From: Octopus vulgaris
Lineage: Eukaryota
DNA: 64,000 nucleotides
Reading direction: 5' to 3'
Assembly: GCA_951406725.2 (NCBI GenBank)
Contig: OX597822.1
Span: forward strand, 91,512,001 to 91,576,000
In this document: in pieces, positions 28,417 through 59,705 of the stretch
Layout of the letters: every line of letters begins with the position of its first letter
Position numbering within the stretch: the first letter of the stretch is position 1
Notes under the pieces: model-generated
The model's input: only the letters and a program-made list of their open reading frames with translations
The model's database searches: none
What the model was told of the DNA's origin: nothing
Program-made: the position numbers and the translations under genes

Positions 28417-28793
28417 AATAATCCTTGGATGGAACTTATAAGCATTTAATGCATCGCTACATGCATTTCCACAAATCATATGTCTCTTGAGAACACAGTT
28501 CATATTCCTGGGATGATTAGGTGCAGTTCATAGTATCTGTGGGCATCGGGTTGATCATCTTCATGGATTCATTTCTTCAGGTGATATAACATTAATGGAT
28601 GTAGAACAGAGGGATGTTTATCTCTTTTTACCAGTGTGAAGGTTAAGCAAGTTACATCAGCCTGATGCCCACAGATACTATGGACTACACTGAAATCATC
28701 CCAGAAATATGGACTGGAATCTTAAGAAACATGATTTGTGAAAATGCATGTAACAATGCATTAAATGTTTATAAATTCCATCCAAGGATTATT
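28417..28793. mobile_element. Non-coding palindrome: ~138-bp inverted arms, each carrying a hammerhead-like motif
   Basis: Arms 28417-28555 and 28656-28793. Combined consensus: catcagc CTGATGC c cacagat...atttgtg GAAA tgcatg TA gcgatg. Confidence 0.75.
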
Positions 28794-28799
28794 AATTAT

Positions 28800-29234
28800 T
28801 AAATCAAAATCAAAATCGAAATCGATCAACATCAATGGAAATTGTAGCTGTGATACCAGTGCCGGTGGCATGTAAGAGAACCATCCGAACGTGGCCGTTG
28901 CCAGTGCCGCCTGACTGGCCTCCGTGCCGGTGGCACGTAAAAAGCACCATCCTATCTTGGCCATTGCCAGCCACGCCTGGCCTCCGTGCTGGTGGCACGT
29001 AAAAAGCACCATCCGATCATGGCCTTTTGCCAGCCTCATCTGGCACCTGTGCCGGTGGCACGTAAAAAGCACCCACTACACTCTCAGAGTGGTTGGCGTT
29101 AGGAAGGGCATCCAGCCATAGAAACATTGCCAAATCAGACTGGGCCTGGTGCAGCCTTCTGGCTTCCCAGACCCCAGTTGAACCATCCAACCCATGCTAG
29201 CATGGAAAGCAGGTGCTAAACAATGATGATGATG
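28800..29234 (+). mobile_element. RTE LINE 3'UTR with four ~62-65-bp tandem units and (GAT)n end
   Basis: gtgccggtggcacgtaaaaagcacc-type units at 28859, 28924, 28986 and 29049; a decayed version follows the RTE ORF at ~62985-63060. Confidence 0.75.
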
Positions 29235-29579
29235 ATTATATTTATTGTACATTATATTGGTACAGCTCAATGCAACCCAGAAGAACTAGTTCACCAGTCA
29301 GCATCATTTGACTGTAGGTGGCACAATGGAATAGGCGCTTTATTTGCATATTCAAAACGCTTCCCATAAACAAATCTAGAAAATACATATACATACATAT
29401 ATATAAAATTAGGTATTAACAGAAATGAAAAAAGTAGTAATGGTGACATGTCTATAAATATAAAAATGCAAACAACTATCAGATTAAAATTTCCACAAAT
29501 AAAGACATATTACAATTATAATGTTAAGTAAGTTTATAGTATAGAAAGGATTTATATTTAAAATGTTAACATCTCAAAA

Positions 29580-29970
29580 TAAGCTCATTATGGCAATTAA
29601 TTACAATCACATTTTCTTTACTGTTTTTATTAATGTAAAATGTCTCTGATATATAAAGGTTACTGCCATCTATTGCCACCACTATAAGGTTGTGCATAAT
29701 CAAGTATTGACCAATAAATTCCATATTCAATATTATTATCCATCAATGAATGTACAAATTTAGCTAGGGATGTATAATTAGCCTTATTTAAATACTCTTT
29801 TAAATGTAGATCTATGATTATTCCATCTGATTTTAAATGATGAAGATGCAACAATGTATACATGTTCATTACCAAGGGCCATAATTGAACATTTATATAC
29901 AATGTTTTCCCTAAGACATTGCTTATTAATAAGGTATTTAGCTTTATCATGACAGTTGCAAAAAGTAAAA

Positions 29971-30008
<38 letters not shown>

Positions 30009-30960
30009 GAGTGAGATAGAGCAGTACATGCCATCAAAGTGACAAAATATACGAAGCCCAGTATACCCATCATGACTACCCATCTGGTAAGGGTACACCA
30101 GGCACATGCATCACAACCATATGTGCACAACATAGTGATCTCATATCAAGATAAACAGCAAATGACCTTGCAGGTGGGGCCCAGTTAAAATTTTCTTCGG
30201 GTTGAGTGGCCCATCTTGCTCAAAAGGTCCCTGAATAAGGGTTGTTTAAGGATTTTGAACAAAACACTCATGTTTCTGTAGGTAAACCATTCAAACCCCA
30301 AAGAATTCCTCTCAACACATGGCTATGATGCTCCCCCACCACTTCTAACGGGGGTGGGGGTTAAACCACAAACCATTTTTATATAAAATACCTTTTCTAC
30401 AATATAAATTATGAAATTTGTCATTGTTTACATAATGTATATTTTTATATAAACTACTACTATAATAATAATTATTATTATCTATATTGTTAAAGTTCTT
30501 CAATACATGCATCTTTTTCCAACTAAAATTATAATTTCTATTATAATTATTAATAACATGGTTGTGAATATTGTTAGTATCTTTAATTATATTAGAGCGG
30601 TACTGATTATTTTGTTGATTAAATTTAAATCTATTGTGTTTACAAGAGTTATTTATACAATGTGAATAACTTTTCTGGTTTTTAGTATTTATATATGTAT
30701 TATTTAAAGGTAAATATTTATTATTTAGATTATCAATATCAAATACAGAATTTATATGATCATTATTACTATGAGCATTAAATTCAGGAAGAAAATCTAT
30801 TCCACCTGTTGACATAGCACAAATTCTGTATTATCTTCAGGTAATTTTTTACATTTTGTATTAGTGCAGACATGCAAGTCATTTATCTATGATTATATAA
30901 GTTATTAACATATTTTTTGAGTTATGAAACAAAATTGTAGAATTATTTGGATTTTTTATT
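29580..30960 (-). mobile_element. Penelope-like element remnant (Asn-rich linker + GIY-YIG), interrupted by family D
   Basis: FCNCHDKAKYLINKQCLRENIVYKC...VYIVASSSFKIRWNNHRSTFK...TSLAKFVHSL...WSILDYAQPYSGG; ORF 30345-30815 is the Asn-rich linker. Confidence 0.8.
30009..30345 (-). mobile_element. Family D repeat (partial) inserted at a (TTA)n tract
   Basis: Matches 3575-3900 and the reverse complement of 37800-38143. Confidence 0.85.
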
Positions 30961-31211
30961 TTTAAATAAAGATTCATCTAAATATTTCTCTGTCATTTAT
31001 GACCATGTGTGTGATCGTGCATGTGTATGTGTGAAACATGTATGTATTTATATGTATGTATCATCATTGTTTTAATACCTACCTTTCCATGCTTGCATGG
31101 ATCACATGAGAGTATGTTGAGGTAATGGCCTTCCTATCACCAAACTTCTCTGTCACAATTACAAGCTATTACAATCGGCAAATGAGCACAGGTGAAGACA
31201 AAAGAACTCAT

Positions 31212-31242
<31 letters not shown>

Positions 31243-31318
31243 TTCAGTATGGGTATAAACTTTGTAGTTTGCTTCAAAAGCTTGTTTGTAAGGGGTTGGC
31301 TTGGGCCACACATACTGA

Positions 31319-33135
31319 CTCAGAGAGTTCCTTCAACATGGCAATGGGTGCCTTTGAAAGTGCTGACCTATGTGACCTAGTTGGTCTCTTCATCCTAGAT
31401 ATGCTAAAAAAGAAATTCCCTTCAACTAGCTTTGGCCTCCACAGAGATGACACACTGGTAATATAAGAAGGGCTAACAGCCACATGCTAGATAAGCTCAG
31501 AAAGGACCTTATAGTTACCATTAACTCCCTTGAACTGAAGGTCACAATAGAGACCAACCTGAAAACAATAGATTTCCTTGATGTGACCCTGGATCTGGAA
31601 TCTGATGCCTATAATCCCTTTAGGAAACCAAATGAGAAACTATCATACATTAACACAAGTTCCTGCCATCCAGCCATAGTGTTCAGGAATGTGGTTAAGG
31701 TGTCAGCAGGAGAATCTCCAGCTATTTTCAAGCAAAGAGATTTTTGATGCTGCCACCCTGTAGTACATCTGGGCTCTGGCTGCCAGCAGTTTCAAGCATA
31801 GTATTACTTACATGCCAGACCCTAGCCCCACAAAGAGATAGTGCCATCAGAAAGTGTTGTGATTCTTGCTGCCCTTCTCTTTAAATGTTAAGACCAGAGT
31901 AGGTAAGATCTTCCTTACTTAAGTTGATAAACACTTCCATCATATTAATAGATTCAACAAAATATTTAATAGATATACCCTGAGACTATCCTTTAACTGT
32001 GCAGTGTACGAAAGATTATAGTAGGTAGGCCTACACCCAAAGCAAAGGCAGGATGCTCATGCAGGGCTAACACAACTTGTCCATTGAATGACCATTGTAA
32101 CATGGAGACAGTTGTATATGAAACAGAGGTAACAGCCATAGGACCCAATGGCCAACCAAGCATAAAGAAGTATGTGGGGGCAATGGAAGGCCCCTTCAGA
32201 AACTGCTTTAACAACCACAAGTTCTCTTTCAACATCCTGGTGAGATGTAATGCCACAACCCTAGCCAAGCACATTTGGTCTTTGAAAGAAAGCACCACAG
32301 AGTACAGCAAAAAGTGAAAGATCCTGGAGAATGCAAACCATACTTCAATAGCAGCAGGAAGTGCAGGTTGCACTTGGCTGAGAAGAGAGCAATTTTAAAG
32401 GGTCCCCGACGCCCAGATATTTGCCTGAATAGCAGGAATGATGTGTTTAATCCTTGCCCACATGGAAAGAAGTACATCCTATTGTACCTGTGTGTCCCAC
32501 CATGACCGCAACCATAAGTCCCCCAGTATCAATCTTCCACCAATATCGTTGGGCCTGGCAAAGACCTGAATACACATCAATGCACCCATATACACACCCT
32601 TACATGGCAGACACCCCACAAAATAGACTGTATCTCATCAGCCCCAACATATACCCCTTCACACAGTTTGTATCCCCCCCCGCACACACATTACACACTG
32701 CAGGCTAACATAAAACCCCCACAACCTTAGAATGTATGGAGAGTAAAAGACCAATGAACACAACTATATATACCTACAACCCTGAAAATTATGCATATGA
32801 CACTACTACACATATCACACACCCCATCCCCATAGGAGTACCACACTTAATAAAACACACTTTCTTGACAAACACTTCAAGATAACTCTTACTGGCCTTA
32901 CAGCGTACCAAACCAAAGGACATAATTCCTAACCTAATCCCCTGGCCCTTTTTCTTTTTCACAGCGCTGCAAACTAGGTGTTAATTCACCTCTGACAATA
33001 GAGAGCAGTCACCATACTCTCCTCCATATCAGCTAACTCTGATGAGCATAAGGTTATATAATCAGATTGTTACCTAACACTCCATTGTATTCCTTGCATG
33101 AGACTGATTGTTAAGATCAGCCGTGAAGGATATTT
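31319..33135 (+). mobile_element. Penelope-like element: RT C-half + GIY-YIG + 3' pLTR
   Basis: AMGAFESADLCDLVGLFIL, GLHRDDTL (YRDD-like), IDFLDVTLDL, YINTSSCHP, CSC..CPL..VVYETEV..KKYVG..GPFRNCFNNHKFSF and CRLHLAEK; frameshifted. Confidence 0.92.
33030..33131 (+). ncRNA. Decayed hammerhead motif in the PLE 3' pLTR
   Basis: act CTGATGA gcataagg...ccttgcat GAGA ctgat-tgttaag-atcag cc gtga; stem III is 5 bp, while GAAA and UH are mutated. Confidence 0.55.
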
Positions 33136-33689
33136 AATACTGTACATTTCAGAAAATACACACACACACACATATATGGGGAGAGAGAGGGAGAGAGGGG
33201 GAGAGAGAGAGAGAAAAACAGAGACAGGGAGATACATATATATATATACTCATCTACATTTAAATAGATTATACTCACACATAAATATGCAACTGCACAT
33301 AGTATTTATATCAAAACTGCTCATGCAGAATTAATAATTAATAATTAACAGAAGATGTCTTTAAAGTTAAATGATAACAGATTGTGTATAAAGACACAGT
33401 TTTAAATACATTAGATATTTGTGCTGCTAGAGGAATACAGACTTAGTTATATATGCATCAGTTGGTGTATGATTTTGTAGCAAAAATTGTATATGCATAT
33501 AATTAACTAAAAGCAAATTAAAACACTACATTTTCACTAATATAGGTATGTATGCACTAGTTAGTGTAAAATTGCACATCAAAAATGCATACACAGTAGA
33601 AGATTGCACAACAAAATGTATACACATATATAATTAAATATACAAATGGAATTTATGACTGTTTTCCAATTTCCTGAAATAAACATTTG

Positions 33690-34176
33690 ATTCTTTGGTT
33701 ACATTTTGCAGTGAGTTCAAAGTGTACTTTAATAAGTCCACCTCTGCACATTAAAATGCACAGTGCCTCCTCAGAGCAAAGATTGCATGATTTGGAATAT
33801 GCACTGTATGGGTATGCATTTCTTACCACTATCCATTATATATCATAATCTGTTTTGTTTTCTCTGAGACACTAAATCAGGTCGGCAAAGGATGTGTTGT
33901 GTCTTTTGTCAATGATGCAATGTTATTGTGGTAATGATTTTTTAAGTAATTGCTTGTTGCACCTATATATGCAAATATCTTTGCTCTTGCCCAGACCACA
34001 CATTTGTATACAATGTTCCTATAGATGCACTCATTTCCTAGAGGACAAGTAACCCTGTTTCTAAAATTACATCTCTTTACTAAACTGCTTTCAAATTGAT
34101 CATTACAAGCCTTTTTTGATGTCTCTATTTACCATCTTGTTACTATTATTGCTATTATTATTGCTATTATTATTGC

Positions 34177-34233
<57 letters not shown>

Positions 34234-34440
34234 CATCATCAGTATTATTATCATTATTATCATTATTATTGCTGTTACTATTGCTTTCAATGTTACTATT
34301 ATTGCTGATCCCAACATCATTGTTATCAAAATTTTCAATATTAACATTTTTATTTATATTACTGTCACTATATTACTGTCAATGCTATTGCTTAAATTGA
34401 AATTATACAGACTGGTGTGATTATCTCCTCTATTATTATT
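33690..34440 (-). mobile_element. Penelope-like remnant with (AAT)n poly-Asn linker
   Basis: Minus strand reads CPLGNECIYRNIVYKCVV...AYIGATSN...WIVVRNAYPYSAYSKSCNLCSEEALCIL; the (TTA)n at 34140-34270 lies in the linker position. Confidence 0.75.
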
Positions 34441-34510
34441 GTTATATATTCTTATGACATATAATTTTTGCTGGTAAGAATAAAGTTTCTAAAATAGAAC
34501 TTTGAAGAAT

Positions 34511-34578
34511 TGCTTTGGGACAATGGTAGAGTGCATGTCATGTCTACAGGAGACACAAGTTCAAGTCCCACGGGCAGC
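34511..34578 (+). pseudogene. tRNA-like pseudogene / SINE head
   Basis: gctttgggacaaTGGTAGAgtg...caaGTTCAAGTCCcacgggcagc: D-loop and T-loop boxes are present, stems are decayed. Confidence 0.45.
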
Positions 34579-34719
34579 TTTTAGCATTTTTTATCCTAGA
34601 AGGTTTTACAGCCCAATATTTACATGCTGTTATTTATAGCTTTATGTGAGCCTTAAAAACCCCAAAAAAAGGATTCATTCATTCATTCATTCATTCATAC
34701 ATACATACATACATATTAC

Positions 34720-35215
34720 ATGCACCCACTGTGACCCATCGGGTCACAACCATTCCAAGTTGAAAATCTTGATGCACGGTAGGAAAGGAAAAAAAAACTT
34801 TTTGGGACTTCATGCAATAAAATTCTTAAATAATACAGTTCTCCTGCTTTTGGTGTGACAACATAAACACAACCAAATGCTTCTTCTTTGAAAACGTTCT
34901 AATGGCCTTCAACTTTTTTCTTCACTGTCTCCTTTGCCATTTTTGTTACTACTGTTCCGAGTGAAATATATGGGTACTTCAACATAAAATAATGTTTCTG
35001 TAAAGTCATCATTGATGCACAATGAAAAGAATTCTGTCAATGTTGTTCTCAAAAGTCGTTCATTGACAGCCATATATATCCTCATTATTTCTGAACAATA
35101 TTCTTTGTTCATCTGGTAGATGAACTTGCAGTCTCACTATTGTAGGTGTTCTTTCCTGAATTGAAAATCCTAAAATGGATGCCACTGCTTTGGATGGTCT
35201 AATATACCTATCCAT
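34720..35215 (-). mobile_element. Helitron Rep/helicase fragment with terminal-type hairpin
   Basis: RYIRPSKAVASILGFSIQERTPTIVRLQVHLPDEQRILF...TTLTEFFSLCINDDFTETLFYVEVPIYFT...ELYYLRILLHEV; hairpin tgtgaccc-atc-gggtcaca at 34730-34748. Confidence 0.8.
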
Positions 35216-35605
35216 TAAGTAAGAAAAAAAGGATGGACAACAGTAGCTGTGATGACTCTGAAATGTCAACATTTTCAACTTGATTATTATTTTCTTGAAG
35301 GCGAAAATAACTATTTTATTTGTAATCCTTATCATCTTAATCAAATAGCAGGAAAACAAACACACTTTGAGTTTTAGTATAATATAGATAGATAGATACT
35401 GTTCTTTGAAAGTTGTATAAATGATTAAGGGAAGAAAAAGAAAGTAAGAAAAAAGGATGGATAGTGATATTGCAACAACTCCTTGAAGTATTGCCACCAA
35501 AATCAACACATTCAACCATTTTATTTGTAGTCTTTATCATCTTAATCAAAATGCAGGAAAACAGATGAACTTTGAGGTTTAGCATTATATATATATATAT
35601 ATATA

Positions 35606-35735
35606 TTCAATATTTTGAGACTAGGATCCCTTCTTCAGGAAATCTTCGCAGAAAAGGTGTTGTTAGCTGGCTTCTCTGCAGAACAGAGAACAATACCTTT
35701 CCTCTGAAGATTTCCCGAAAGAGAAGTCCTAACCA
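35606..35735. mobile_element. Short hammerhead-bearing palindrome between TA-rich flanks
   Basis: ~45-bp arms (35621-35664 / 35689-35732). Minus strand: tttc CTGAAGA a ggga-tcctag-tctc AAAA ta T T gaa, i.e. a minimal hammerhead with GAAA decayed to AAAA at a CpG. Confidence 0.6.
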
Positions 35736-35757
35736 TGTTATATATACGATATATTAT

Positions 35758-35952
35758 TGGCTTCAAATTTTGGCACCGAGTTAGCAAGTTTGGGGTAGAG
35801 GGTAAGTCAATTACATTGACCCCAGTGCTCAACTGGTACTTATTTTATCAACCCCAAAAGGATGGAAGGCAAAGTTGACCTTGGGCAGAATTTGAACTGA
35901 GAACATACTGATAAAAAGAAATGCTACTAAACATTCTGCCAGCTTGCCACCT
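35758..35952 (-). mobile_element. SINE family B
   Basis: Reverse-complement copy. Confidence 0.8.
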
Positions 35953-36624
35953 CTATACAATATATTATTAAATAACAGGTTGAGATGGTGCCATGCAACT
36001 TGAAGTTTCCTGGGCTTGAAAACAAATGTAATTCAGGCAGCTAGACAGAGACTAACAAGATATGAGACAAATTCTAGATGTTAGGCCTTTGTTGGTCAAT
36101 TCACATCATGTGGTGTTATTGGGTGTGAAAGCAATTATTGTCTTCATTCCTAGGCCTACGTGGTTAGACAGGATGTTGGTAGGTAACTGTTGCTGCTTTG
36201 TCTGAAACCTGTGCTAAGGCTTATTTAATTATATTGGTTTATTGCATTTGATGCTACACATGACAGAGAGAGGTATTGTCACAGATTAGTGGAAAAATAA
36301 CACTACAGTGGTAACAGACTTTCCATGTGAGTAAACAGATTTGGAGTGGTGCTGGATTAAAATTTGTTGGTCCTAGGATGGATTGTCAGCATGAAAGGGA
36401 CTGTAGTCTATGTGGGCTGCAGGGGTTAAAGTACCATGCCATGTATATGGAATTACCAGGCCTAAGGTGGGACATCTGGATTGCTGGCTGCCAGTGGCTT
36501 GAAGTTCATTATCAGGGTGTACCAATGGTGCAAACAAGATATTTCATTCTTCCTATTGAGGGATACTACAGGCTGGTGGAATATGTACAGTCTCCTGCAG
36601 AGGCTTGTTCTATGAGCCTACAAA

Positions 36625-36825
36625 ACTTTAAGAGTTCCCTAATCAACACTTCATGGGAGTGTTGGAATCTAGTTAAAAAAGAGGATGAAGATTTTGTCAC
36701 ATATGCCAGGACTGTAAACTGAATGTGCAAAAGGTTTAAACTGAAGGAACTAACTCCTGACATGTTTACGTGTCTTATTTTTGTACAAGGGCTTATGGCA
36801 AACAAATGTGCGGAGATTATAAAAC
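36625..36825 (+). mobile_element. Ty3/Gypsy gag-like fragment
   Basis: SSLINTSWECWNLVKKEDEDFVTYARTVN*MCKRFKLKELTPDMFTCLIFVQGL resembles Mag-type gag. Confidence 0.65.
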
Positions 36826-37039
36826 AATTATAAAAGCAAAATAATGAAAACAGGCCCTAACACCAAGTACAGAATGTGCAACCAGCATAATGAGACAGTT
36901 GACAACATCATTTGACTTGTCCTGTCCATATGTGAATATATATATACAGAGTAAGTGGTTATATCCGCTGGACAATATGCCAACATTACAACATAAAGAC
37001 TAACAAGAAACATGTGCCAAGCAAGGGACATGATAACGT

Positions 37040-37534
37040 CCCAGGCCACAATTATGTAGGATATGCCTGTTCAAACTGACAAAGAAATAAAAGTTAATCA
37101 AAGATTGGACCCCCCCCACAAAAAAAAAAAACACTTTATTCACTGATAGACATTGCAGTCCCTTCTGACCAAAATATTGCCCCCACAGAAGTGGAGAAAT
37201 TGTCAAAGTACAAAGACCTTAAAACTGAAGTATTCAAGTTGTGGTGCAGGAAAGTGAAAACAATACCAGTAATAACAGTTTAAGGTATGATAAAAAGAAA
37301 AAAAAAATAGCCCACATCTTATGCAAGACACTACCGATTCAGCCCTGCAACATGTATTCTACAGGCTGGATACCCAACAGAAGAACACAACTTGCATTAC
37401 ACACACAACACACAATACAAACACTAACAGAACAATATATATATAAAGGGGGAACAAAATGAACATACAATGTTGCAAACACCCCAGCAACATGGAGGTG
37501 ATGCAGTAGAAATCTGCCTGAAACTATCAAATGT

Positions 37535-37540
<6 letters not shown>
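37040..37540 (+). mobile_element. R4/Dong-like RLE 3' fragment ending in (TAA)n
   Basis: DMPVQTDKEIK, LIDIAVPSDQNI, EVEKLSKYKDLKTE..KLW and KTIPVI. Confidence 0.75.
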
Positions 37541-37570
<30 letters not shown>

Positions 37571-37585
37571 TAATAATAATGATAA

Positions 37586-38143: not shown

Positions 38144-38204
38144 TAATAAATATAATAATGGTTTCTCATCTTAACTGATTGGAAGTGTTATCGTGTACAT
38201 GTAG

Positions 38205-39820: not shown

Positions 39821-40853
39821 ATGGCTGGGAAGAGGTGAAAATCAGAGGGTGCAAGGTCAGGAGAGTAGGGGGATGGGGGAGGAGTTCATAACCGCATGCC
39901 TGTGCTTCTGATCTGGCGACACGAGAGTTGTGGACTGGAGCGTTGTCCTGCAAAAGGAGGATGCCTTTGCTGATCTTGCCCCGCCTCTTGATTTTGATAG
40001 CTTCTCTTAATTTCCTGAAGCATAATAGGCTCCTGTAATTGTGGTACCCTTTGCCAGGAAATCTGTCATCACTACTCTGTCCTGGTCCCAGAAGACTGTG
40101 AGCATGACCTTGCCAGCGAAGGGCTGCACTCTTGCCTTCTTTGGAGGAGGTGAGTCATGGTGCTTCCACTGCATTGACTGGGCTTTGGTCTCTGGATCAT
40201 AGTGATGGACCCAGGTTTCATCCTGTGTAATCAGTCTTTTGAAAAATTTTCGACTCATTTTCTTGGCACATCTCCAAATTCATCCTCGAGCACTCGACGC
40301 ATTCTTGCTTCTGGAAAGGTGTGAGCAGCCTGGGAATCCATCTGGCAGACACTTTTTGCATATGCAAATGGTCATGAATGATAGTTTCCACAGACCTGGT
40401 ACTAATCTTGACCTCATGGGCTATTTGGCGAATAGTTATGCGTCAATCTTCCAAAATGGCAGCTTCAACTTGACAGACAGATGCTTCATCAATGGCAGAA
40501 GTGGGGCGACCAGATCTGGGAGCTGTTTCCACAGAGTTCCGACCATGTTTGAATTCACGATGCCAGCGTTTTACAAGGTCATATGATGGGGCATCATCAC
40601 CATAAGTTACTTTCATTTCATCAAAAGTCTCCTGTGGTGTGCGTCCTTTCAAACCGAATCACTGCTTGACACTCAACAGGCTCCATTTCACACTTGACTC
40701 AGTTCAAACACCTATAAATCAGAAACCACAATTAGTTCAGAGCTGTAATTTGCCACTTAATCTATAGAGATATAAATAATTGCACATGCAAAATTTCAGC
40801 TAGATCAAACAACTGCAAGTGGATCAGGGGCATTACTTATTGAACGTCCCACG
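39821..40853 (-). mobile_element. Mariner transposon lacking its 3' end
   Basis: 5' TIR (ta)cgtgggacgttcaataagtaatgcc. Transposase from ~40686 has APRSGRP, ARWIPRLL, ITQDETWV, QDNAPVH and HPPYSPDLAPSDFHLF, with few lesions. Confidence 0.93.
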
Positions 40854-43506: not shown

Positions 43507-44290
43507 ACCTCATATAACGAACTAAAGAAATTGAATAATAAAAAAACGTGAAAACACTGAGAAGGCAGCATATAGAAAACACAGACAGTATACAATTGAA
43601 AATTAAAAACAGAAACTAAAATGTAAAAAATAAAAAGTAAAACGGTAAAAGATCTATCCTCCTTAGACCTTAAATGATAAGGCTGGAAAGATATCAAGTC
43701 AGTCAGGAATAGGCAGAATTTTCCAATTCTTCAAAATATATTTATACATATGCATGCAACCACTGAAAATTTCTGACTTGGAGTTCAATAGAGAGTTAGA
43801 GATTGTAGATCTGAACAGAATCTGCACTTTTTCAGCCAAACAAAGTCTACATTCAATCCATTCACATATGGTATGGATTTCTCAATTACTTTCCATTTAA
43901 TCACATGTGGTGTTTCATTATCTTTCAAAGTTCATACATAGCTAACCAACTTAGTAGGTTTACTTTTGTCCCTATTTTGGAAGGAGGCTATATATTGGCA
44001 CAGCAATCTTTAAATTCACCTTCACATAATCCAGTGTAGGTCTTCTTATCAGTTGTATTATTATTTAGGGTTGCAGTAACTTCTGCCTCATATATGATAG
44101 ATTTAGTCCTACACTGTTGGTCAAATGGATAGGATCTTGGGTCGGGACAGTTGCAACTGGATTCAGGCTCTTGGTATTGACCCCGTGTAATGATACTCAA
44201 AATATTGGGGCAGCAGCTATATGATAATTTCACAGAATGCCTATTAAATATTTTCCTGTATCTGTGACTGGAAAGTGTTTGTCTAGGAGA
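43455..44290 (-). mobile_element. Penelope-like remnant (GIY-YIG + 3' pLTR)
   Basis: RYRKIFNRHSVKLSYSCCPNI, CNCPDP..QCRTKSIIYEAEV, KTYTGLCEGEFK and IKWKVIEKSIPY. Confidence 0.85.
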
Positions 44291-44314
44291 CACTGGGTTT
44301 ACAAGTTTTATTTT

Positions 44315-44802
44315 TCAAGCACAAGATCCAAACTTTGAACAAAGTCCAAATGTTTCTACTTTCATAACAAATGTTTCTGTGAGTTATAGAAAGCGAAAAA
44401 AGCTTCTTCTAAGCAAACAACACTAGTCTTGTTTTTTAAAAAAAGATCTACAAGTTCCTCTATGAGTGCTTCTGAATCAGCAATCAAGTCTACAAGTGAT
44501 GGTATGCACAAGTCTAGTGCGAGTGAAAGTGATTCAGAAAACAATAATAATAATAATAATATGTTTTATTATAAATGATCTTGACATTATTTTTACTTTA
44601 CATTAAATATTCTTTACATTCTACTGTTGTTTTATTGCCATTTATTTACGAGTATTATAAATTTTATAGGTAAAATATTTTTCTGGGAACAAATTACGAT
44701 TTATAACATTGCTACTATGGAAAGTTATTGCTCTGCTTCATGAGTTTTCACTTTACAAGTGGTCTCTGGGTACAAATTAACTTGTAAATCTAGGCATTAC
44801 TG
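44315..44802 (+). mobile_element. pogo/Tigger-like transposon 3' end
   Basis: QDPNFEQS...KASSKQTTLVLFFKK-type C-terminus, then a terminus cttgtaaatctaggcattactg|TA. Confidence 0.6.
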
Positions 44803-46072
44803 TATATGTGTATATATATGTGTGTGTGTGTAAGTCATCTAAGAGTCCATAAGATTCAGGAAAAAAATGCACTTGTATATCTGTCAAAAGAGTCAGTATA
44901 TAATCTGAAGTGTACAGTATTATATATCCATTATGACCGATCATGCTAATTGGTTTCGCACTAGGGATTCGATGGAGTTTTAGGTAACAATCTGATTATG
45001 TAACACTAAGCTCATTAGAGGTAACCAATATGGAATGAAATATGGTGACTGCTCTCTATTGTTGGAGGTGAATAGACACATCCAGTTTGTGATTGTTGTG
45101 AAAAAAGATGACGAAACAAAATGAGTAGAGGATTAAGTTAAAAGTTATGTCCCTTGGTACTAAAACATCAACATTGGGTGGTTATTTTGGAAGTCAGTAA
45201 TAGCTGCAGTTCTATTTTGCAAAAACTAATCTAAGCATAAGTACACTCTGACTACTTTAATCACCTTACCAACCTGTTTCTCAGCTAAAAGTATGCTCAC
45301 ACCACCTACCCCATCACTATTTCCTTCCCAGGAGATTTTCTACCTATGTTCTTTGAGGAACCTGTCTGAAGATCCCCTCCACCTTACTTCTTGAACACAA
45401 CACACATCTTCATGCCTCTGTTCAAGCATCTTGAACAATCTCATTTATTTTTCAATATGCCCACACTGACTGTAAGAGGTGGTAAGAGAGAACAGGGAGA
45501 TGGAGAATGGCATTCAGCATCTGAAAAGAAGGATTGCAAGGACATTTGCCAGCAGGCATATCATATGAGTTTTCCCTGGCATTTAATCTACCATCATTCA
45601 CTCATTTTGCACTCACTGCTTCAACAAGAAGAGGATATACAATCATTGTTAATACAAATATAAATAATATCTGATTAATTAATTAGTTAAATGACTGGTA
45701 AGTGTCCTTATATAACATTTCCTATGTAAAGAGTGCTAGTTATGGCTTTTATATTCCATTACTGTCACTGAAAGAATGCTGAAATACATGAGGAGGTGGG
45801 GCACAAGAAAGGATGCTGGTATAGAGGTGAGGTTTCCAGTATAGGTGGTGGGGGCAAGTATGGGTGGATGCATTGTGAGTGAGCAAGTGAAGCTGTGTGA
45901 CTAGATGGAATCATACAAAATTTCAACAAGCCAAAAAGAAACCTACATTGGATGAAACATACAAATTATCATGAAAAAGAAGAGGTAAGCACAATTTCCA
46001 GGACAGAGCTAGTAGTAATGAAAGGTGGGGAGACAGGATACATTTTCAGGACAGAAAAAGTACACACGCACG

Positions 46073-50000: not shown

Positions 50001-50089
50001 TTAATATTTCAAAATTTCCCTTGTTGGGAAGATCAATCATTACTTCACAATTTCTAATATATTTCCATAAGGAAGTACAGTGGATGTAC

Positions 50090-50620: not shown

Positions 50621-50621
50621 C

Positions 50622-50694
50622 AACATGACTGCCTCATGACATGGCTACCTCATGACATGACTGCCTTGTGACATAGCTGCCTTGTGACATGGCT
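50622..50694. repeat. 16-bp tandem repeat (approx. acatggctgcctcatg) x4-5
   Basis: Directly visible, right after the hAT WL motif. Confidence 0.85.
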
Positions 50695-52193
50695 TTTGAA
50701 CCAAGTTTTGACTTGTGATCAGAAATTGTGCTGCAAAAACACATCCTGAAAACACCATCAACAAATTCATTCCATACCTAGCTGATCTATCAGAAATTGA
50801 GTGTACAGCATCTTTCTAGTTTCAGCTAGGTGCAATGGGATACTCAACCATAATAACATGAGTTATTGATGCATTTCTCTAATTTCCTATGACTTACTAT
50901 ATGTATGATCTTAGATCCTTGGACAATGTACCACTTCAAGTCCAAAACTATAAGCTGCTTCATTCTAAGCACAGATATTAACCTGGTTCTGTGAAGACTA
51001 TGCATCTAAAATCTGGTGTCACCAAAAAACTTCATTTATCTCACCAAGGCTATGTTCTGTGCACTTGTGTTTTGTATAATACACAATTTTATGCTGAGGC
51101 AATTTGAATTTCTCAAAGCTGAGAAATAATTGGAAGCCATTGCTTGAATGCAGGTGTTTAATATGATTCAACTAAAATGATAATATCTCTTTCAATAAGG
51201 GAAGCAATCAGACTATCAAATAGCATGGTATATGATGATTACTTATTTTATCAACCCAATACAGCTGAAAAGTTGAGTCAACCCTGGTGGAATCTTGAAC
51301 TTAAAATATGAAAGGATTCCCTCAATTTTTTTAGTTCCACCATGGATATCAAAATGATAAAGTGACTAACAAATTACTTCTACAAATGAATTCCCCTAAT
51401 TTGTATATAAGGTTCATTTCCACCTTCAGAAGTCGACAGCATATAGGTAGCTACACTCCCTTGAAGAATGTATATGTGTACTTTTACTTATTCCAGTCAC
51501 TGGACTAGTCATGCACAAGTTATTGCTTTATTTGTCAATCAGATTTTTTCCGGAATTTTCCCAAATACTATGATTGTTTTCTCTGTATTCCATAAAAATA
51601 ATTCCATCTTCACCAGTGTGACAACATCAGAAGAACATAAATAAATTGCTATGTTTACGAAATTGTTAACTTCATATGTTCCGTTACCATTTATGGCTGA
51701 TGCCTAACCATAGAATTAATATATAATAATACACATAACATGCCTGTAAATAAGCATTTAATAAGTAATACAAAGAATCATGTTATAAGAGATACCAACT
51801 CTTTTATACTCTTCTAATTAAAAATCTAAAAATAGTGTGGACATCATATCTGAATATTAGTTATGTACAGATAGAGACAAAACAAAGAAGTAGGAATAAT
51901 GATGCTGAGTTTGATGCAAAGCAATAGGATGTAACATACTAAATGCAACAATAACAAAGTCAGTTTAAGAGATTAAGAAATAAAAGCACTAAAGGAAGCC
52001 TTTTAGAAACATTGAAACTAAGAATCTTACTAGTGCAGGCTACAGGAAGGAGACATAAAATGTAGTAATCAACAAGAATATCTATAGGTTAAAAGAGAAA
52101 TGAGTGAATATATATGCTGCTCTAAACCAGTAGGAGAGGTAACACAAGTAGAATGAATGTCAAAATTAAACGAAGTGTAAGCATGCTTGTTAA

Positions 52194-52413
52194 CCCTTTT
52201 GAGACTAACCCGCCTGAAACCGCCTCTGGCTCTGTAGTACAAATGTCTTATTTTCAAAAATTCTGCATTAAAATCTTCCACCAAACCTTAGTCACAATTT
52301 ATGTTCCTAACACTAGCTTAATGATAACTAAGTTATTTTACTAAATTCTTTGTTATATTTAAAATCAATTGAAAGAAACAGAGCATCTCAACAGAAATGT
52401 GGTAATGAAAGGG
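52194..52413. mobile_element. 220-bp piggyBac-type MITE (second copy)
   Basis: TTAA flanks; colinear with 19459-19678. Confidence 0.92.
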
Positions 52414-52604
52414 TTAAGTATACTTCACTAAATCCTAAAAGAGTAATGAATGCTTAGAAATAATTCTTATCAGATGTATTTTAATTTTAGAACTGGCATT
52501 TGCTATCATCTAATTTTTTAAATGGGGTCATAATACAGAAGAAGTGAATGTAGCACCAATTTCCAGCTGGGAAGATTGAGATAAGTTGAGTAATGTCCTT
52601 CATT

Positions 52605-52983
52605 TATCCCTTTAGCATTCAGATTACATTGTCAAACATAATTCTTATTTATTCAATTTGGTTTGAGTTGATTATGCATTATCTCATAACTTTGAGATTT
52701 CAATGATGATGATCATCATCATCATTTAACGTCCGCTTTCCATGCTGGCATGAGTTGGACGGTTCAACTGGGGTCTGGGAAGCCAGAAGGCTGCACCAGG
52801 CCCATATTTTTGATTGTATTTTTGATTCTATATTTTTGATTGTATTTTTGATTCTATATTTTTGATTGTATTTTTGATTTTTGATTGTATGATAAGTGTG
52901 AGAGACCAAATCTGGCCAGTTTGAACATAAAATGTGTAGAATATTTGGGCTGGATATGGCCAGTTTAAATGCTAAAGCGTTAG
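52605..52983. mobile_element. Second piggyBac-type MITE family, carrying an RTE-tail insertion (52702-52803, -) and a 26-bp tandem (52806-52890)
   Basis: Ends ttatccctttagcatt / aatgctaaagcgttag (decayed TTAA-ccc...ggg-TTAA). Confidence 0.65.
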
Positions 52984-53684
52984 GAGGAACAAGAAAACCC
53001 CTTAATGTGAGACTATTAAATCTGTAGCCCATTACATTGTTCACAGCCATCATGCCTCCACTATCCCCCTTTTACCCCTCCCCATATTCTTGTATGTGTC
53101 AATTTTGTATACAACTTAATTTCTTTTGTATTTGCAGAATAAGTAAATTTCAAAAACTGAAATTCAATTAAAGTCAATTTTACTGAATTATCTTATTTCT
53201 CAAGCTTAGTTTGTCAATCTTTCTATAACTTCTATACTTTGAGATATAACAAGTCATAATTAACTTATATCAAATATTTGGTAAGAGATACAAACTCAAA
53301 TCAGTTGTTAAGCTAAAGATTAACAACCTTTATAAAAATATATTTGATAATTATTGGCAATGTATTGAAATTTAAATGTACTTCTAATATTCTGAAAGGA
53401 CTTTTTATGAAATAAAATAGGAATATACAGTTGACATTTGAAGTCTGCATCTGACTTCTAAATGTATAAAACTATAAAACAGATAACTATAGAAATATAG
53501 AACACAAAAGAATCTGTGAATTCTATGAATAAAATAATCCAAATGTTCAATATCTTAAAAGGAGATAGTTGTTTATACATTATATAATGAACAAACAGGC
53601 CAGTGCTTAGAAAATAAGACTATAGATAATCTTATGCAATAATCCTTTCAGAGAAAGTACATATGTTAAAAAAACACAAAATCA

Positions 53685-53896
53685 AGGGGGCAAGCTAGCA
53701 GAAACAGCATGCCAGGCGAAATGCTTAGCAGTATTTTGTCTGTTTTTATGTGCTGAGTTCAAATTCTGCCGAGGTCGATTTTGCCTTTCATCCTTTCGGG
53801 GGTCAATGAATTAAGTACCAGTTGCATACTAGGGTCGATCTAATCAACTGGGCCCCTCTCCAATAATTTTGGGCCTTGTGCCTAGAGTAGAAAAGT
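53685..53896 (+). mobile_element. SINE family B
   Basis: Full-length copy. Confidence 0.88.
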
Positions 53897-55291
53897 TAAC
53901 CCTTTAGTTTTTGCCAACATTCATACTGAAATGATTACTTTGAAATAATTTCATTGGAAATACTTCACAGAATAAGTATTTAAACTGTGTTGATAGATGT
54001 CTAAATTAATCAAATTGATAATAAAGAAATATTGATTTCTATTAAGAGTACGTTGGTGATTTAATGAACTTCGCTATATTATTGATACTTATTTTACAGC
54101 ATCCAGAAGACTGGACAATAAAGTCAACTTTAATGTAATGTAAACTTTGAAGACTAAATACCAAACTAAAATAAAATACACAGTTCTATTATCTTAGTCT
54201 CAAGTGCCTCTTGATTTTTGGCTAGAAACAAGCCTCACATTTAAGAGGAAGATCAATAACACTGGCTGATATTCATGCCTTTCTTAAGTAGTTCATGTAA
54301 ATGTAGCGAACTGGTTTCAACTGAGACTGAAACTTCAGGCTCTGTCCACAGGGAGTTGTATATCTTGGTCTGTGCTGCAAGACCAATCATTTGTAGAAGT
54401 TTTTCAATTTGCTTGTCTCCAGTACATACTTTGCATCTATTTTATTGAGTGAAAAAGGATGAAATGCAAAATTGAATGAGCCGAAGCAAAGACTTAGACT
54501 CAGTACATAGAGGAACATAATATTGTAGCCTGTATTATGTTTCGCTATTTTTGAGACTCCATACATCAGAATAAAGAACTGTTGATTTTAAATTTTGGTA
54601 CAAGGTCAGTAATTTCGGGTAAGCTGCTTGCATCAACCACAGTGCTCAACTGGTGCTTATTTTATTAACTCCGAAAGAATGAAAGGCAAAGTTAACCTGG
54701 CAGAATTTGAACACAGATGGATAGAGGAATATTGAAAAATATTTTACATTTGTTATAAGTAAATTTTCTCCAAGACATTCAATGGGATGCAAATCATTTC
54801 TCTGTTGTTTAGTTTGGATTTCATATTTGTTTTGATAGGGAATTGAAAAAAGGTGAGATTCTCTTTGACGGAATTTATTTAAATAGATGGAATAACTTAA
54901 CAATAGGACAAATTATGATCAAAATACTGGTCACACTTTTTGTATTTGATTCACATAAAATATAAAAAAGTATTTTTGGTACTTAGTGTGGTAAAAATTT
55001 AAACAATCTCATAACTTTTTTTTTTGTTTTTCTAATTTGACAACTCCAGTGTTTGTAAAATCTAACATGTATCTTCAGTAGCAACAGCTATGCATCTTAA
55101 ATAGGTCTTTAGTTAAATGCTTTTTGAAAAAATTAGGCTTAGCTAAGCTTATCATGGACTTGTCTTGCACAAGCTAAATAGTATAATCTATTACTGACAG
55201 TGAGGTTGAAAAATATTTTGATTATTTTATAAGTTTTAATCATGAAAATAAGGTGAGATATTTGTTAAATGAAAACATAAAACTTTGTTGT

Positions 55292-55333
<42 letters not shown>

Positions 55334-55511
55334 ATCTTTTATCTTTTACTTGCTTCAGTCATTTGACTGTGGCCATGCTGGGGCAGCACCTTGAAGAATT
55401 TTAGTTGAAGGAATCAACCCCAGAAATTATTATTTTTGTAAAGCCTGGTACTTATTTTATCAGTCTCTTTTGCTGAACCACTAAGTTACAGGGATGTAAA
55501 CACACCAACAC

Positions 55512-55577
<66 letters not shown>

Positions 55578-55641
55578 CACACACACACACACACAGACAC
55601 ACAGACACACACATATATATATATACATACATATATGTATA

Positions 55642-56773
55642 CAGGGTTTCCTAAAGAAATGAATACACACTTTACCTAAAGTGCTACAAAATGTTTGAAA
55701 ATGCAGTCAAAATGCAAATACAATTTACAATGGAGATTCAAGCAGATCCATCGAATTAGAGATAAATTTAATGCAGATGAAACCCTTCAGAATGTCCACA
55801 AGAAACATTGTGGAAAACCATAGACACTGACAAACCCCACAAAGAGATAGAAAAGAAATTGCCAGAGATCAAGAAAATCTGTGCAGCAAGTTGTGAGGCA
55901 GGAATTTCAAAATCATACATCTGTTGCATTTTGAAGTACTGTTATTGGAAAAGTTGCATTCTAAGAGTAGTCCATGCTTTCAATAAAGATGATCCATACT
56001 GAAGAAAGGAATTTTGCAATTAATTAGTATATTACTAAGCAATTAGCAAAATGGGTAAAAAAATGCACACTTTCTACCCAAGATTGTTTGGAGCGATGAA
56101 GTTACATTTAAATTAAATGGCTCAATTAACCACCACAGTTGCACCTACTGAAGACCTGAAAACCAGTATACTGCAGAGGACCATGTTAATTTATGAGGAG
56201 TGGCAGTAGGGTATGGCTTATCATCAAATGTATTAATTGAAACATTCTTTTGTGATGATACTGTGACTGGTCTCCTTTACTTGAACTTGCTGCAACAATA
56301 TTTCATGCTAAGCATTCAAGAGGATTTTGAAGATGTAGAGTTATTATTTCCAGCAAGATGTGACACTCCCAAACTACTGTAGCAATGTAAATGCCTACCT
56401 GATTAAATTTTGCCAAATATGTGGATTGGATGAAGTTCAGTATACTCTTTGCATTTACTAAACCTCTCACCACTAGACTTTTTTTTATGGGGATACTTAA
56501 AAGATAGAGTTTGTGGCACAAAACTAGCATGGTCAACAACTAGAGGACAGGTATTGGATGAGAATGCACACAAACATTGAATGAAATGTCTCTCAATGTT
56601 TGTGGTTCTATTGCTTTTTGTTATCAGCAATGCATGAACTAGTTTCAAAACAGGCTTTCATAAAAGTTTAATTTTGTCTGTAAGCTCTATTAAATTTCAA
56701 AAATGAAATGTATTTTAGTAAGCACTGACATTATAATCATTCAATGTGCATATACATTTTTTGGGACACCCTG
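55642..56773 (+). mobile_element. Decayed Tc1/mariner-superfamily transposon (maT/DD37D-like)
   Basis: TIR cagggtttcctaaagaaatg / cattttttgggacaccctg with TA flanks; [17 protein letters not shown] and LSPLDFFLWGYLKDRV. Confidence 0.85.
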
Positions 56774-56845
56774 TATATGTACGAGACAAATGTATGTACA
56801 TGTGTGTGTATATTCTTTTTATTCATGACTGAAACAAGTAAAAAC

Positions 56846-57225
56846 TTGTTTCAGTCATTTGACTGTAGCCATGCTGGAGCAACACATTTAGTTGAACAAA
56901 TCGAAACTAGGACTTATACTTTGTAAGCCTACTACTTATTCTATCAGTATCTTTTGCTGAACTGCTAAGTTATGAGGGATGCTAACACACCACCAGCAGT
57001 TGTCAAGCGATGGTGGACACACACACAAACATATACATACACACACACACACATTTATATACACACAAAAGGCTTCTTCCAGTTTCTATCTACCAAATCC
57101 ACTCACAAGGCTTTGGTTGGCCTGAGGGCTATAGTAGAAGATACTTGCCCAAGGTGCCATGCAGTGGAACTGAACCCAGAACCGTGTGGTTGGGAAGCAA
57201 GCTTCTTACCACATAGCAACACCTG
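56846..57225 (-). mobile_element. SINE family A
   Basis: Reverse-complement copy; another partial copy lies at 55335-55510. Confidence 0.82.
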
Positions 57226-57324
57226 TACTAATACAATTATTTGTTTGTATTCCACCTGCCTTCGTCTTTTGTTTATTTCCATAAACCTGCCTTCGTCTTT
57301 TATCTATTTTCATAAAGCTTCCCG

Positions 57325-57374
<50 letters not shown>

Positions 57375-57414
57375 GCATGTGTTCACACACGCAGTGATAG
57401 AAGATAGAAAATAA

Positions 57415-57906
57415 ACTCTAAGTTAGTTCCAATATGCTTGGGACATATTTCAACTTCTAAAGGCAATTTCACTGCAATTTATTGTGCAGAAAAAATTCTT
57501 ACTTATGATAAAAGTTGTAAATACACCATTACCAGCTCAAAGCACCCTCTGTGGGCAATTATATGTGCATTTCTGGGTCTTTTAATGTCTTCAGCAGTGG
57601 ATACCAAAGAGAGGTAGTCCTACGGTGATAGTAAGCCATAGCTTTATTATAAAATAGTAAATATTAGTTACTAATTTGTGCTTGTAGACCGCCCGGTCTG
57701 ATCAAATATATAAGTAGTAGTGAAGCAGTGATGGAAAATAAACAAACTTCAGGTTAATTCAAATATGTTTGGGAGGCATTTCATCTTCTAAAGGTAATTT
57801 CACTACAGCTTATCGCAAGTGAGAATATTTTCTCTGTGGTAAACTGCAGTGAAATTTCCTTTGGAAGCTGAAATACCTCTCAACCATATTTGAACTAACC
57901 TAAAGT
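57415..57906. mobile_element. Non-coding nested inverted-repeat unit with internal hammerhead-like motif (57546-57600, -)
   Basis: 57415-57520 is the reverse complement of ~57800-57906, and 57746-57906 is itself a ~70-bp-arm hairpin. Minus strand: ccactg CTGAAGA...GAAA tgca-catataat-tgcc ca cagagg. Confidence 0.7.
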
Positions 57907-57944
57907 AAGTTGGTCTGCTTGTTTGTGCATGTGTGTGTGTGTGT

Positions 57945-57984
<40 letters not shown>

Positions 57985-58538
57985 ATGTGTGTGCTCATGC
58001 ACATGTGCATCCAGTGTTGCAGCTATTCAGCATATCTAGAGATAATTCAAGTTATTAAATTCAATAAGTATATTACATTTTAAAATTGTGTCTAAAAAAC
58101 ACTCATAAAAGAAATGGAAAAGATCTATAAGTGGTGATAAAAAGGCGTGATGTGTGAACTGAAAAATATTCAGTAACTTATTTGGTAATTTTATCTAAAT
58201 TTTGTTTAATTTGAATTTACTAAACAAAATTTAAGATATTAGTGTTCAATGAAAGTATTTTCTGAAACCAACCCACAATTTTTAGGATTTGTGGATTTTC
58301 CCCCATTTATCTGTCCATTCCCACTTGTTGATTTATAATTGATTGCACTTTTCATCTTAATTTAGTCACAGTTATCCTGATATTTAATGAGATGGATCCA
58401 TCCTATGCACCTATGAATTTTGAGGCCTTATGGAGCTGGTTAAACAGTAACAAAAAATATATGTAATTCCTACCAAATTACTGAGTGTCACTTTCTTTTA
58501 TTTGTCCACTCACTTGTAATTGTATGTATATATGTGTA

Positions 58539-58596
<58 letters not shown>

Positions 58597-58647
58597 ATAT
58601 CTATCTATCTATCTATCTATATATATCTATATATCTATATATCTATA

Positions 58648-58732
<85 letters not shown>

Positions 58733-58837
58733 AAGTACAAATGAGGATATAAACTGCGGAAGGATAAAAATACCCAAGATTAGACTGGTTGAATGCCTAA
58801 CAAAGCAGGCACATACAAATACAGCATTATTGATATT

Positions 58838-59615
58838 ATACAAAACAAGAGAGAAGATGGAGATAAGATTAATAAAAGTTTATTAGCGTTGACAAGACCA
58901 CACCTACAATTGTTTCAATTCATCACTTGCAGCATAAAAATTAACCAAATATAATTCAATTTAACTAAATTAATTTGGTTAATTACTACAAATGAGAATA
59001 TCTTCAGGGAAGGATGCACAAAGAAATTTACTATATTTAAAACAAAATGAAAACATAAAACAGGAAGCATACAGTGTACCGTTGTAGTTAAAAATACGTA
59101 CACAGTTACACAGTTATAAAAATAGATAGAGTTATAAAATAATATAGCTAGTCATAAATTAATATAAATAATGCAGACATAACCATGTGAAAATACAAAT
59201 AAAGGTGGTGTGTAAAAACAATAGACTGTTTATTAAATTATGGGAGTAGAGAATTTAATAAATAATCTATTGTTTATATACAAAACCTTTATTCGTATTT
59301 TCACATGGGTATGTCTGCATTATTTATATTAATTTATGACTAACTAAATTTTTTTATAACTCTATTTTTATAACTGCATACATATTTTAACTACAATTCT
59401 TCCTGTTTTTATGTTTTAAATGTAATGAATTCCTTTGTGCATCCTTCCTTAAAGATATTCTCACTTGTAATTAACCAAATTAATTTAGTTAAATCAAATT
59501 ATATTTGGTTAATTTTTATGCTGCAAGTGATAAATTGAAACAATTGTAGGTCTGGTCTTGTCAATGTTAATAAACTTTTATTAATCTTATCATCATCTTC
59601 TCTCTTGTTTTGTAT
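58838..59615. mobile_element. 778-bp near-perfect palindrome (arms ~400/365 bp, 12-nt loop), each arm carrying a hammerhead-like motif
   Basis: Arms 58838-59239 and 59252-59615. Left arm minus strand: cc CTGAAGA t attc tcatttgtag...ctgcaagtga t gaat t GAAA caattg TA gg. Right arm has the same motif with the core decayed to TTAAAGA. Confidence 0.9.
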
Positions 59616-59650
59616 GTGTATATATATATACATATATATGGTTATCTTTA

Positions 59651-59705
59651 GTTATCTCTGATGATGTTGAATAGTTGAAACAAATGGCCTGTTTGTAAGA
59701 AAACC
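59651..59705 (+). ncRNA. Type-I hammerhead-like motif
   Basis: gttatct CTGATGA tgttgaatagtt GAAA caaat-ggcct-gtttg TA agaaaac: stems I and III are well paired and the cleavage triplet is GUA; stem II is weak. Confidence 0.65.

Follow-up and report, generated by a model that had tools for sequence, protein, structure and literature searches.

In a stretch of 64,000 nucleotides (nt) from Octopus vulgaris (NCBI GenBank assembly GCA_951406725.2, contig OX597822.1, positions 91,512,001 to 91,576,000 of the forward strand), hereafter the window, we analysed four non-coding palindromes carrying hammerhead ribozyme-like motifs, termed P1 (28.4 kb), P2 (35.6 kb), P3 (58.8 kb), and P4 (57.4 kb) after their position in the window. 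With a probability of roughly 0.8, each palindrome is a single old and decayed insertion, in which the enzymes of Penelope-like elements (PLEs) wrote two 5′-truncated 3′ ends of a hammerhead-bearing repeat head to head. It follows from this two-copy, single-insertion reading that the spreading unit would be the one-armed repeat and not the palindrome. The reading is supported by arms of unequal length, by a spacer that is part of the longer arm, by abundant arm families with fixed 3′ ends, and by the presence of one readable core per unit. The original prediction, made from the letters of the window, had proposed a class of double-hammerhead palindromic mini-elements. As a new class, these would have been a self-silencing ribozyme retroelement; the evidence points to a known footprint. 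Its layout is already published, and the P1-P4 families add new members to a known kind.

Layout of the Palindromes

The window is microsatellite-rich animal DNA with 34% GC. Self-BLAST recovered fold-backs at 58838-59615 (P3, E 0), 28417-28793 (P1, E 1e-56), 57746-57906 with 57415-57511 (P4, E 1e-36 and 2e-15), and 35634-35719 (P2, E 9e-8), with gap-free arm identities of 92% (P3), 89% (P1), 78% (P4), and 74% (P2). The four sequences are mutually unrelated, their best cross-matches being chance words of 16-17 nt (E 0.03-0.2), and are non-coding, with stop-free stretches of 46-78 amino acids (aa) at longest. When 150 Penelope-like proteins were compared with the window, no match overlapped any of the four palindromes. 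The 3′ ends point outward into TA/TG repeats or AT-rich DNA, and a TA-repeat or AT-rich target is seen at the palindromes. Self-BLAST, cross-match and frame checks thus agree with the earlier description of P1, P2, and P3 as three unrelated, non-coding palindromes with outward 3′ ends in AT/TA-rich flanks.

All four left arms have a hammerhead-like core on their minus strand, as had been anticipated. A type I core with a short palindromic stem III is intact on the left arms of P1 and P3, and decayed in P2 and P4. The plus-strand counterpart claimed for the right arm did not hold up: that of P1 starts in stem II and has no core, and that of P3 reads TTAAAGA at this position. An inverted, truncated head-to-head copy is present in 4/4 units, and a complete hammerhead on each arm in 0/4, which argues against a double-hammerhead class, as no unit has two intact cores.

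It was also observed that in all four units the left, minus-strand arm is longer or better preserved than the right (cores at 28574-28580, 35632-35638, 57588-57594, and 59001-59007). This preference is not significant, but insertion or decay may have been biased toward one strand.

The Palindrome at 28.4 kb

The copy behaviour of the families was read from public contig sets aligned to P1 and P3 only, in which contig depths are sums over contigs and not copy numbers. For P1, the stretch 28300-28680 was compared with three DNA runs and a fourth run that is presumably RNA; 1331-1568 family contigs aligned per DNA run, and 29 in the guessed-RNA run, none of the latter being more than 95% alike. 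The long arm (28417-28649, minus strand, with an approximate 5′ limit at 28644-28656) is the 3′ end of an abundant repeat family and includes the spacer of the palindrome, which belongs to the left copy because the interval 28417-28644 is covered without a break by contigs of other copies. Depth has its maximum of 38,800-77,800 at the core inside this spacer (28573-28585), and over the first mirror bases it is 35-59 in the three DNA runs, the level of a single contig (listed single contigs have 19-82). Among the joints listed (15/44), 7/15 change strand, all at different position pairs and each in one contig per run. At the 3′ end, loose letters extend outward in 47-56 contigs per DNA run, with an agreement of just 0.62-0.65. 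A fixed 3′ end combined with variable 5′ truncation is seen in the depth and loose ends of both the P1 and P3 families.

The motif scan and the contigs place one copy of hammerhead core 1 (CUGAAGA) at 28574-28580 on the minus strand, in the non-mirror part of the spacer. From the motif and the family letters, a type I hammerhead is predicted at 28446-28596 (minus strand), consisting of a bulged stem I (28581-28596 with 28446-28457), a stem II region of 104 nt (28470-28573), and a GAA followed by a palindromic stem III and a predicted GUA cleavage triplet (28458-28469). Before the contigs were seen, it was predicted that the P1 motif derives from ACGCGCGT by CpG decay and that one pair of its stem I is broken. 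The family letters restore both: 28461 G, 28462 C, and 28465 G rebuild the ACGCGCGT palindrome at 48-75% of depth in three DNA runs, and 28582 C mends the stem I pair at 67-72% of depth. They also mend a stem II pair at 28479 (77-86% of depth), and among the 40/43 difference rows listed no difference falls in the core at 28574-28579. Because the family letters restore pairs that had been predicted beforehand, the hammerhead reading of P1 gains independent support. The short arm (28665-28793, plus strand), delimited by self-BLAST and a motif check, is an inverted copy truncated within stem II, without core 1 and with a G12>A change; by its letters, this arm alone is no ribozyme.

The right arm of P1 has a CTGATG at its start, which was considered as core and ruled out, since the left arm reads CCGATG there, and 28574-28580 is favoured by family depth and by stem I. 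The left flank of P1 (28326-28414) is a different and very abundant repeat, with depth of up to 26,700 and loose ends at 28414, and a stretch related to it was seen by eye at ~28220-28290. Directly after P1, a GC-rich unit of 60 nt stands in 3-4 tandem copies (28859-29073), running into a repeat that resembles a short interspersed element.

The Palindrome at 58.8 kb

For P3, four runs were compared with the stretch 58735-59265, which includes 14 mirror bases, and 193-306 contigs aligned per run. The long arm (58838-59253, minus strand) includes a 12-nt spacer, and other copies run past 59253 into different sequence; four contigs from run X1 (agreement 0.99) extend there into sequence unlike the mirror arm. 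Because relatives continue past 59253 in non-mirror sequence, the two arms overlap by 2 nt at the junction. The short arm (59252-59615, plus strand), recognised by self-BLAST, motif check and contigs, has its core 1 mutated to TTAAAGA (59449-59455; C3 and G5 changed), is tail-less, and ends in a TG/TA repeat. A 3′ extension or “tail” of ~103 nt occurs on the left arm only (58735-58837, minus strand), and in other copies contigs span the border between tail and arm (e.g., 58736-59014 and 58775-59060). Depth falls from 4,400-9,800 at 58861-58878 to 163-330 in the centre bin and 0/0/0/16 in the mirror bin. Copies ending in TA/TG repeats at 58833-58842 were found in 4/4 runs, and 2/15 joints change strand among those listed (15/30), neither at the centre of the window copy. 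The family sequence upstream of 59253 is represented by 30 loose letters; because these differ from the tail in a by-eye comparison, the P3 unit would exceed ~550 nt.

The hammerhead predicted for P3 (58905-59007, minus strand) has an intact core 1 at 59001-59007, an 84-nt hairpin as stem II, and a GAA with the palindrome ACAATTGT and a predicted GUA triplet. Its stem II folds at -30.7 kcal/mol (z -8.2), and the common letters of other copies at 58957 and 58992 convert G-U to Watson-Crick pairs.

The two families together bear on the proposal that open reading frame (ORF)-less double-hammerhead palindromes spread in their entirety and that the antisense arm gates the ribozyme. Its outward-facing design is common to unrelated sequences, a read-through RNA is predicted to fold into a long hairpin in which core 2 of P1 and the two cores of P3 are paired with a probability near 1, and the long-arm ends of the P1 family gather at 28636-28644 in 4/7 strand-changing joints listed. 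The suggested sequestration of the ribozyme by its antisense arm stands insofar as these cores are buried, although the same follows from any palindrome. We nevertheless find the proposal very improbable, given the lack of two intact cores in any unit, the single-copy depth at the centre of P1 with seven differing fold-back points among the joints listed, and the P3 relatives that extend beyond the centre. Moreover, the arms are 8-26% different and carry indels, and their mismatches have no significant strand bias to G-U-tolerated changes (18 vs. 30, p = 0.11). A whole palindrome recurring with the same centre, as such a class implies, is contradicted by the depth and joints of P1, and P3 points in the same direction more weakly.

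The same data bear on an origin as fold-back DNA transposons at TA, similar to miniature inverted-repeat transposable elements, or as repair-made inversions after a simple insertion. Long terminal inverted repeats, TA-rich flanks, and the non-coding nature would all be expected there, and for single loci a repair origin after insertion keeps a small share of the probability. However, the depth along the arm is strongly polar, 13- to 31-fold by run in P3, and not even as in such elements; the tail is one-sided, relatives continue past the centre, and the best-covered part of P1 is the hammerhead core inside the spacer, all of which make this origin improbable.

As a separate observation, the P3 tail read on the minus strand (58735-58837) contains a pyrimidine run ending in CAG, resembling a splice acceptor. 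The pseudo-long terminal repeat (pLTR) regions of PLEs are known to carry introns.

The Units at 35.6 and 57.4 kb

The left arm of P2 (35606-35680, minus strand) stops at a TA repeat and bears a minimal PLE-type hammerhead in decayed form, of which 3 nt remain before the repeat. It has core 1 at 35632-35638, an extra A, and a 5-bp stem II beginning with G-C, and is damaged by a G12>A change; both the extra nucleotide after A9 and the G10.1-C11.1 pair are present. The right arm (35683-35745, plus strand) is 74% identical to the left and only a remnant, as originally described. The P2 fold-back reaches ~35606-35745, beyond the self-BLAST match. Apart from this unit, at a distance of ~470 nt, lies a 74-aa frame (34909-35133, minus strand) without a match in Pfam. 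It may resemble a Helitron Rep/helicase.

P4 is a partial tandem of ~1.3 units of a non-coding 334-nt monomer (57391-57825, minus strand), recognised by the direct repeat 57391-57482 / 57725-57813, and given its 334-nt period the unit looks ORF-less. It is followed by an inverted short copy of its 3′ end without a hammerhead core (57826-57906, plus strand), identified by self-BLAST and arm comparison. The terminal 24 nt (57391-57414) are absent from the inverted arm and represent a one-sided tail, as read from the window sequence alone. The fold-back that had been described as a related nested unit at 57415-57906 is therefore real, but only a single decayed core (57588-57594 and 57562-57573) was found in it, and none on the inverted arm.

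Hammerhead Motifs Across the Window

At E<=10, the Rfam models gave 68 matches in the window, none of them to a hammerhead or other ribozyme, so that the models which had been suggested as a check for the motifs did not recover them; a strict short-stem hammerhead descriptor had no match in the window either. A long-stem descriptor was therefore used, joining the exact core CUGANGA to GAAA and a palindromic stem III of at least 8 nt, with a long stem II and CpG decay allowed. It gave three matches (the left arms of P1 and P3, and 47-133), where 100 block-wise dinucleotide shuffles average 0.11 and never exceed 1, and with a 4-nt palindrome six matches including the left arm of P2, compared with 0.97 in shuffles; as the descriptor was tuned after the matches had been seen, these enrichment figures are optimistic. 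A loose descriptor is near noise (28 rows vs. 14-24 sites per shuffle). The stem II of the long-stem candidates (P1, P3, and 47-133) spans 68-104 nt, and the customary G10.1-C11.1 pair is missing. Lunse et al. may reportedly have described long stem II variants already.

Against these counts one can weigh whether the matches to hammerheads arose by chance, or whether the palindromes are assembly artefacts. The silence of Rfam, the 14-24 sites that the loose descriptor finds in shuffles, and the later tuning of the strict one would fit with chance. However, the strict scan reached three matches in 0/100 shuffles, and the letters of other copies restore pairs predicted in advance. An artefact is opposed by the 8-26% difference between arms and by the three DNA runs, in each of which the first mirror bases of P1 have single-copy depth. 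We hold either possibility to be the least probable of those considered here.

Further motifs were noticed elsewhere in the window. The candidate at 47-133 (minus strand), situated at the window edge, has an intact core, a 68-nt stem II (z about -2), a U.U base like that of P3, and a ACGATCAT stem III. At 14305-14340 (plus strand) there is a minimal PLE-type hammerhead motif consisting of the core, an extra A, a 6-bp stem II starting with G, and a 4-bp stem I. Self-BLAST found no palindrome at either of them, with the former at the window edge, so that a partner arm may lie outside; such solitary cores speak for the single-insertion reading. Two related copies at 32912-33153 (plus strand) and 44904-45158 (minus strand) each have a PLE endonuclease remnant on their own strand at a distance of 400-600 nt; CTGATGA is kept in one and GCGAAAC in the other, and the pair is suggestive of a pLTR hammerhead whose stem II measures ~55 nt. 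A core-like match at 33700-33774 was dropped, as it lies inside a PLE coding remnant. A search of JGI metagenomes with a 25-nt pattern returned 0 matches.

Penelope-Like Elements as the Probable Source

Five Penelope-like coding remnants, plus three weak traces, were found in the window, where seven remnants had been counted originally; none of them overlaps a palindrome. Three are endonuclease remnants on the minus strand, at 29663-30029 (tblastn E 1e-17, matched by 123/150 proteins), 33647-34137 (E 6e-18, 129/150), and 43708-44344 (E 8e-31, 138/150). A further coding remnant lies at 25881-26877 (plus strand, E 1e-19, 126/150), and the end of a reverse transcriptase (RT) with a GIY-YIG domain and a CxC..CPL..C linker was recognised at 31281-32527 (plus strand) from protein relatives and tblastn. 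A window fragment led to 1406 protein relatives at E<=0.001, whose nearest named cluster in the protein atlas is GIY-YIG, found in 12% of the cluster's members. Long relatives have a YRDD RT motif together with the CxC..CPL..C linker, and by this motif we take them to be Neptune-like. Pfam detected no PLE domain in the window fragments nor in 12 relatives, and word-index protein searches gave no match.

The palindromes resemble PLE hammerheads as presented in passages of Cervera and de la Peña (2014; PMC4209133), in which dual minimal hammerhead ribozymes 100-700 bp apart on opposite strands are ascribed to truncated PLEs. The likeness extends to the type I core, the short palindromic stem III suited to dimers, and opposite-strand pairs at like spacing, and P2 additionally shares the extra nucleotide after A9 and the G10.1-C11.1 pair, which these passages call highly conserved at the base of the short stem II. 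In contrast, the stem II regions of P1 and P3 span 104 and 84 nt, where 7-8 bp are counted as large in the same source, and their bases are A.G and U.U. The missing G10.1-C11.1 pair in P1 and P3 lowers the case for a standard minimal PLE hammerhead, not for a PLE-type layout. We found no published paper on these families or on PLE variants with a stem II of 70-100 nt, although the supplements of PMC4209133 may show longer stems.

A closer parallel in layout is found in the pLTR insertions of endonuclease-positive PLEs. Inverted 5′-truncated copies, one-sided tails, and TA targets are described in parts of Arkhipova et al. (2013; PMC3846280) and Craig et al. (2021; PMC8557442), and 5′ truncation, inverted pLTRs, and a one-sided tail also in parts of PMC8969392. 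The octopus units share with these the head-to-head inversion, the unequal 5′ truncation, the tail at one end, the TA/AT-rich target, and a hammerhead near the end of the repeat. They differ in having no linked ORF, a P3 tail of ~103 nt vs. 30-40 bp, and no clear target duplication. The third comparison is with animal non-LTR retrozymes, ORF-less hammerhead repeats of ~300 nt thought to be moved by PLEs, according to passages of Cervera and de la Peña (2020; PMC7229834) and Li, Clavereau and Pollet (2026; bioRxiv 10.64898/2026.07.22.740005). The 334-nt period of P4 in a partial tandem (1.3 units) recalls them; however, in these passages retrozymes appear as direct tandems or solo monomers, P1-P3 have no tandem unit in the window, and the units lack the two hammerheads required of an active retrozyme. 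Of the earlier idea that ORF-less inverted-pLTR elements were moved by the RT and GIY-YIG endonuclease of PLEs, the PLE link is thus supported by the hammerhead-bearing ends and the inverted copy, and P4 looks ORF-less, while the parent families of P1-P3 may be coding or ORF-less.

As for the writing step, we give slightly better than even odds to a mechanism in which both target strands are nicked, both ends are primed, and synthesis stops early before joining. The GIY-YIG endonuclease would nick both strands of a TA/AT-rich target, the RT would prime from both 3′ ends at one of two RNA start sites, which would leave the tail on one arm, and both cDNAs would terminate early and then be joined at their growing ends. 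Such activities are described in sections of Frangieh et al. (2024; PMC11167929) for a purified PLE protein of anole, Poseidon_Ac (PAc), which acts on AT-rich DNA by cutting and extending both of its strands, and whose RT starts at two sites bounding the tail. Cutting of both strands and two RT starts predict the outward 3′ ends and the one-sided tail seen here. The differences are that Poseidon_Ac is a coding element, that the joining of arms is not demonstrated in these sections, and that the hammerhead is dispensable for insertion in vitro. The loci in the window fit the model of PLE enzymes priming from both target strands, a step not yet demonstrated to completion.

An alternative for this step, which shares the PLE origin and is a rival to the mechanism only, invokes an antisense template on which the inverted arm arises by self-priming or by folding back, a route suggested for the Penelope elements of rotifers. 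Parts of Arkhipova et al. (2013; PMC3846280) interpret head-to-head repeats with junction palindromes in this manner. Self-priming alone would leave unexplained why the tail on one arm matches two RT start sites (PMC11167929, as far as its relevant sections go), and why spacers of 12 and ~105 nt belong to one arm, and we regard it as a rather unlikely, though serious, candidate.

The hammerheads would enter this double-priming scheme as pLTR or retrozyme cargo, which in tandem parent RNAs would have paired through the palindromic stem III and been active as dimers. Dimers of motifs on one strand are considered necessary for PLE hammerheads in passages of PMC4209133 and PMC6765202, and an inverted pair cannot supply such a dimer. 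In these decayed opposite-strand copies, the hammerheads are probably dead, and the long hairpin is probably a by-product. Such insertions would seed long hairpins across the genome, which, if transcribed, could feed RNA editing or small-RNA pathways.

Several observations weigh against the single-insertion reading. PLE membership rests on layout and motif, because no palindrome arm is linked to an RT/GIY-YIG frame within the window, and Rfam recognises no hammerhead there. There is no clear target site duplication, a feature that varies among PLEs, with a 6-mer at P1 and TA/TG words elsewhere. Neither P1 (A.G) nor P3 (U.U) has the G10.1-C11.1 pair at the base of stem II, the stem II of the P1 window copy folds no better than shuffles (z +1.5), and the stem I of P3 is weak; its tail also exceeds the length described for PLE tails. 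Among the strand-changing joints listed for P1, the clustering of the longer arm's end lies close to that of the window copy itself, and may indicate a preferred 5′ end or merely the edge of the reference. Hairpins break contig graphs, by which copies with the same centre are possibly under-counted, and the centre test of P3 is weaker than that of P1, with 14 mirror bases and the locus's own contig absent from the mirror bin in 3/4 runs.

More tentatively, the 28.4- and 58.8-kb families may be ORF-less parasites of Neptune-like PLEs, having active hammerheads with a structured stem II insert of 80-100 nt and no G10.1-C11.1 pair, and a preferred start of the long arm. If this doubtful possibility were true, the families would represent a hammerhead variant on which little has been published, and would document in nature how a PLE reverse transcriptase primes from both strands. 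Hammerheads with such a long stem II, if they cleave, extend the known range of shapes, and standard Rfam models miss them.

Other Elements of the Window

No host gene was identified in the window. Mariner-type transposase remnants (PF01359) occur at 6769-7050 on the plus strand (E 1.6e-21) and at 40010-40279 on the minus strand (E 2.6e-17).

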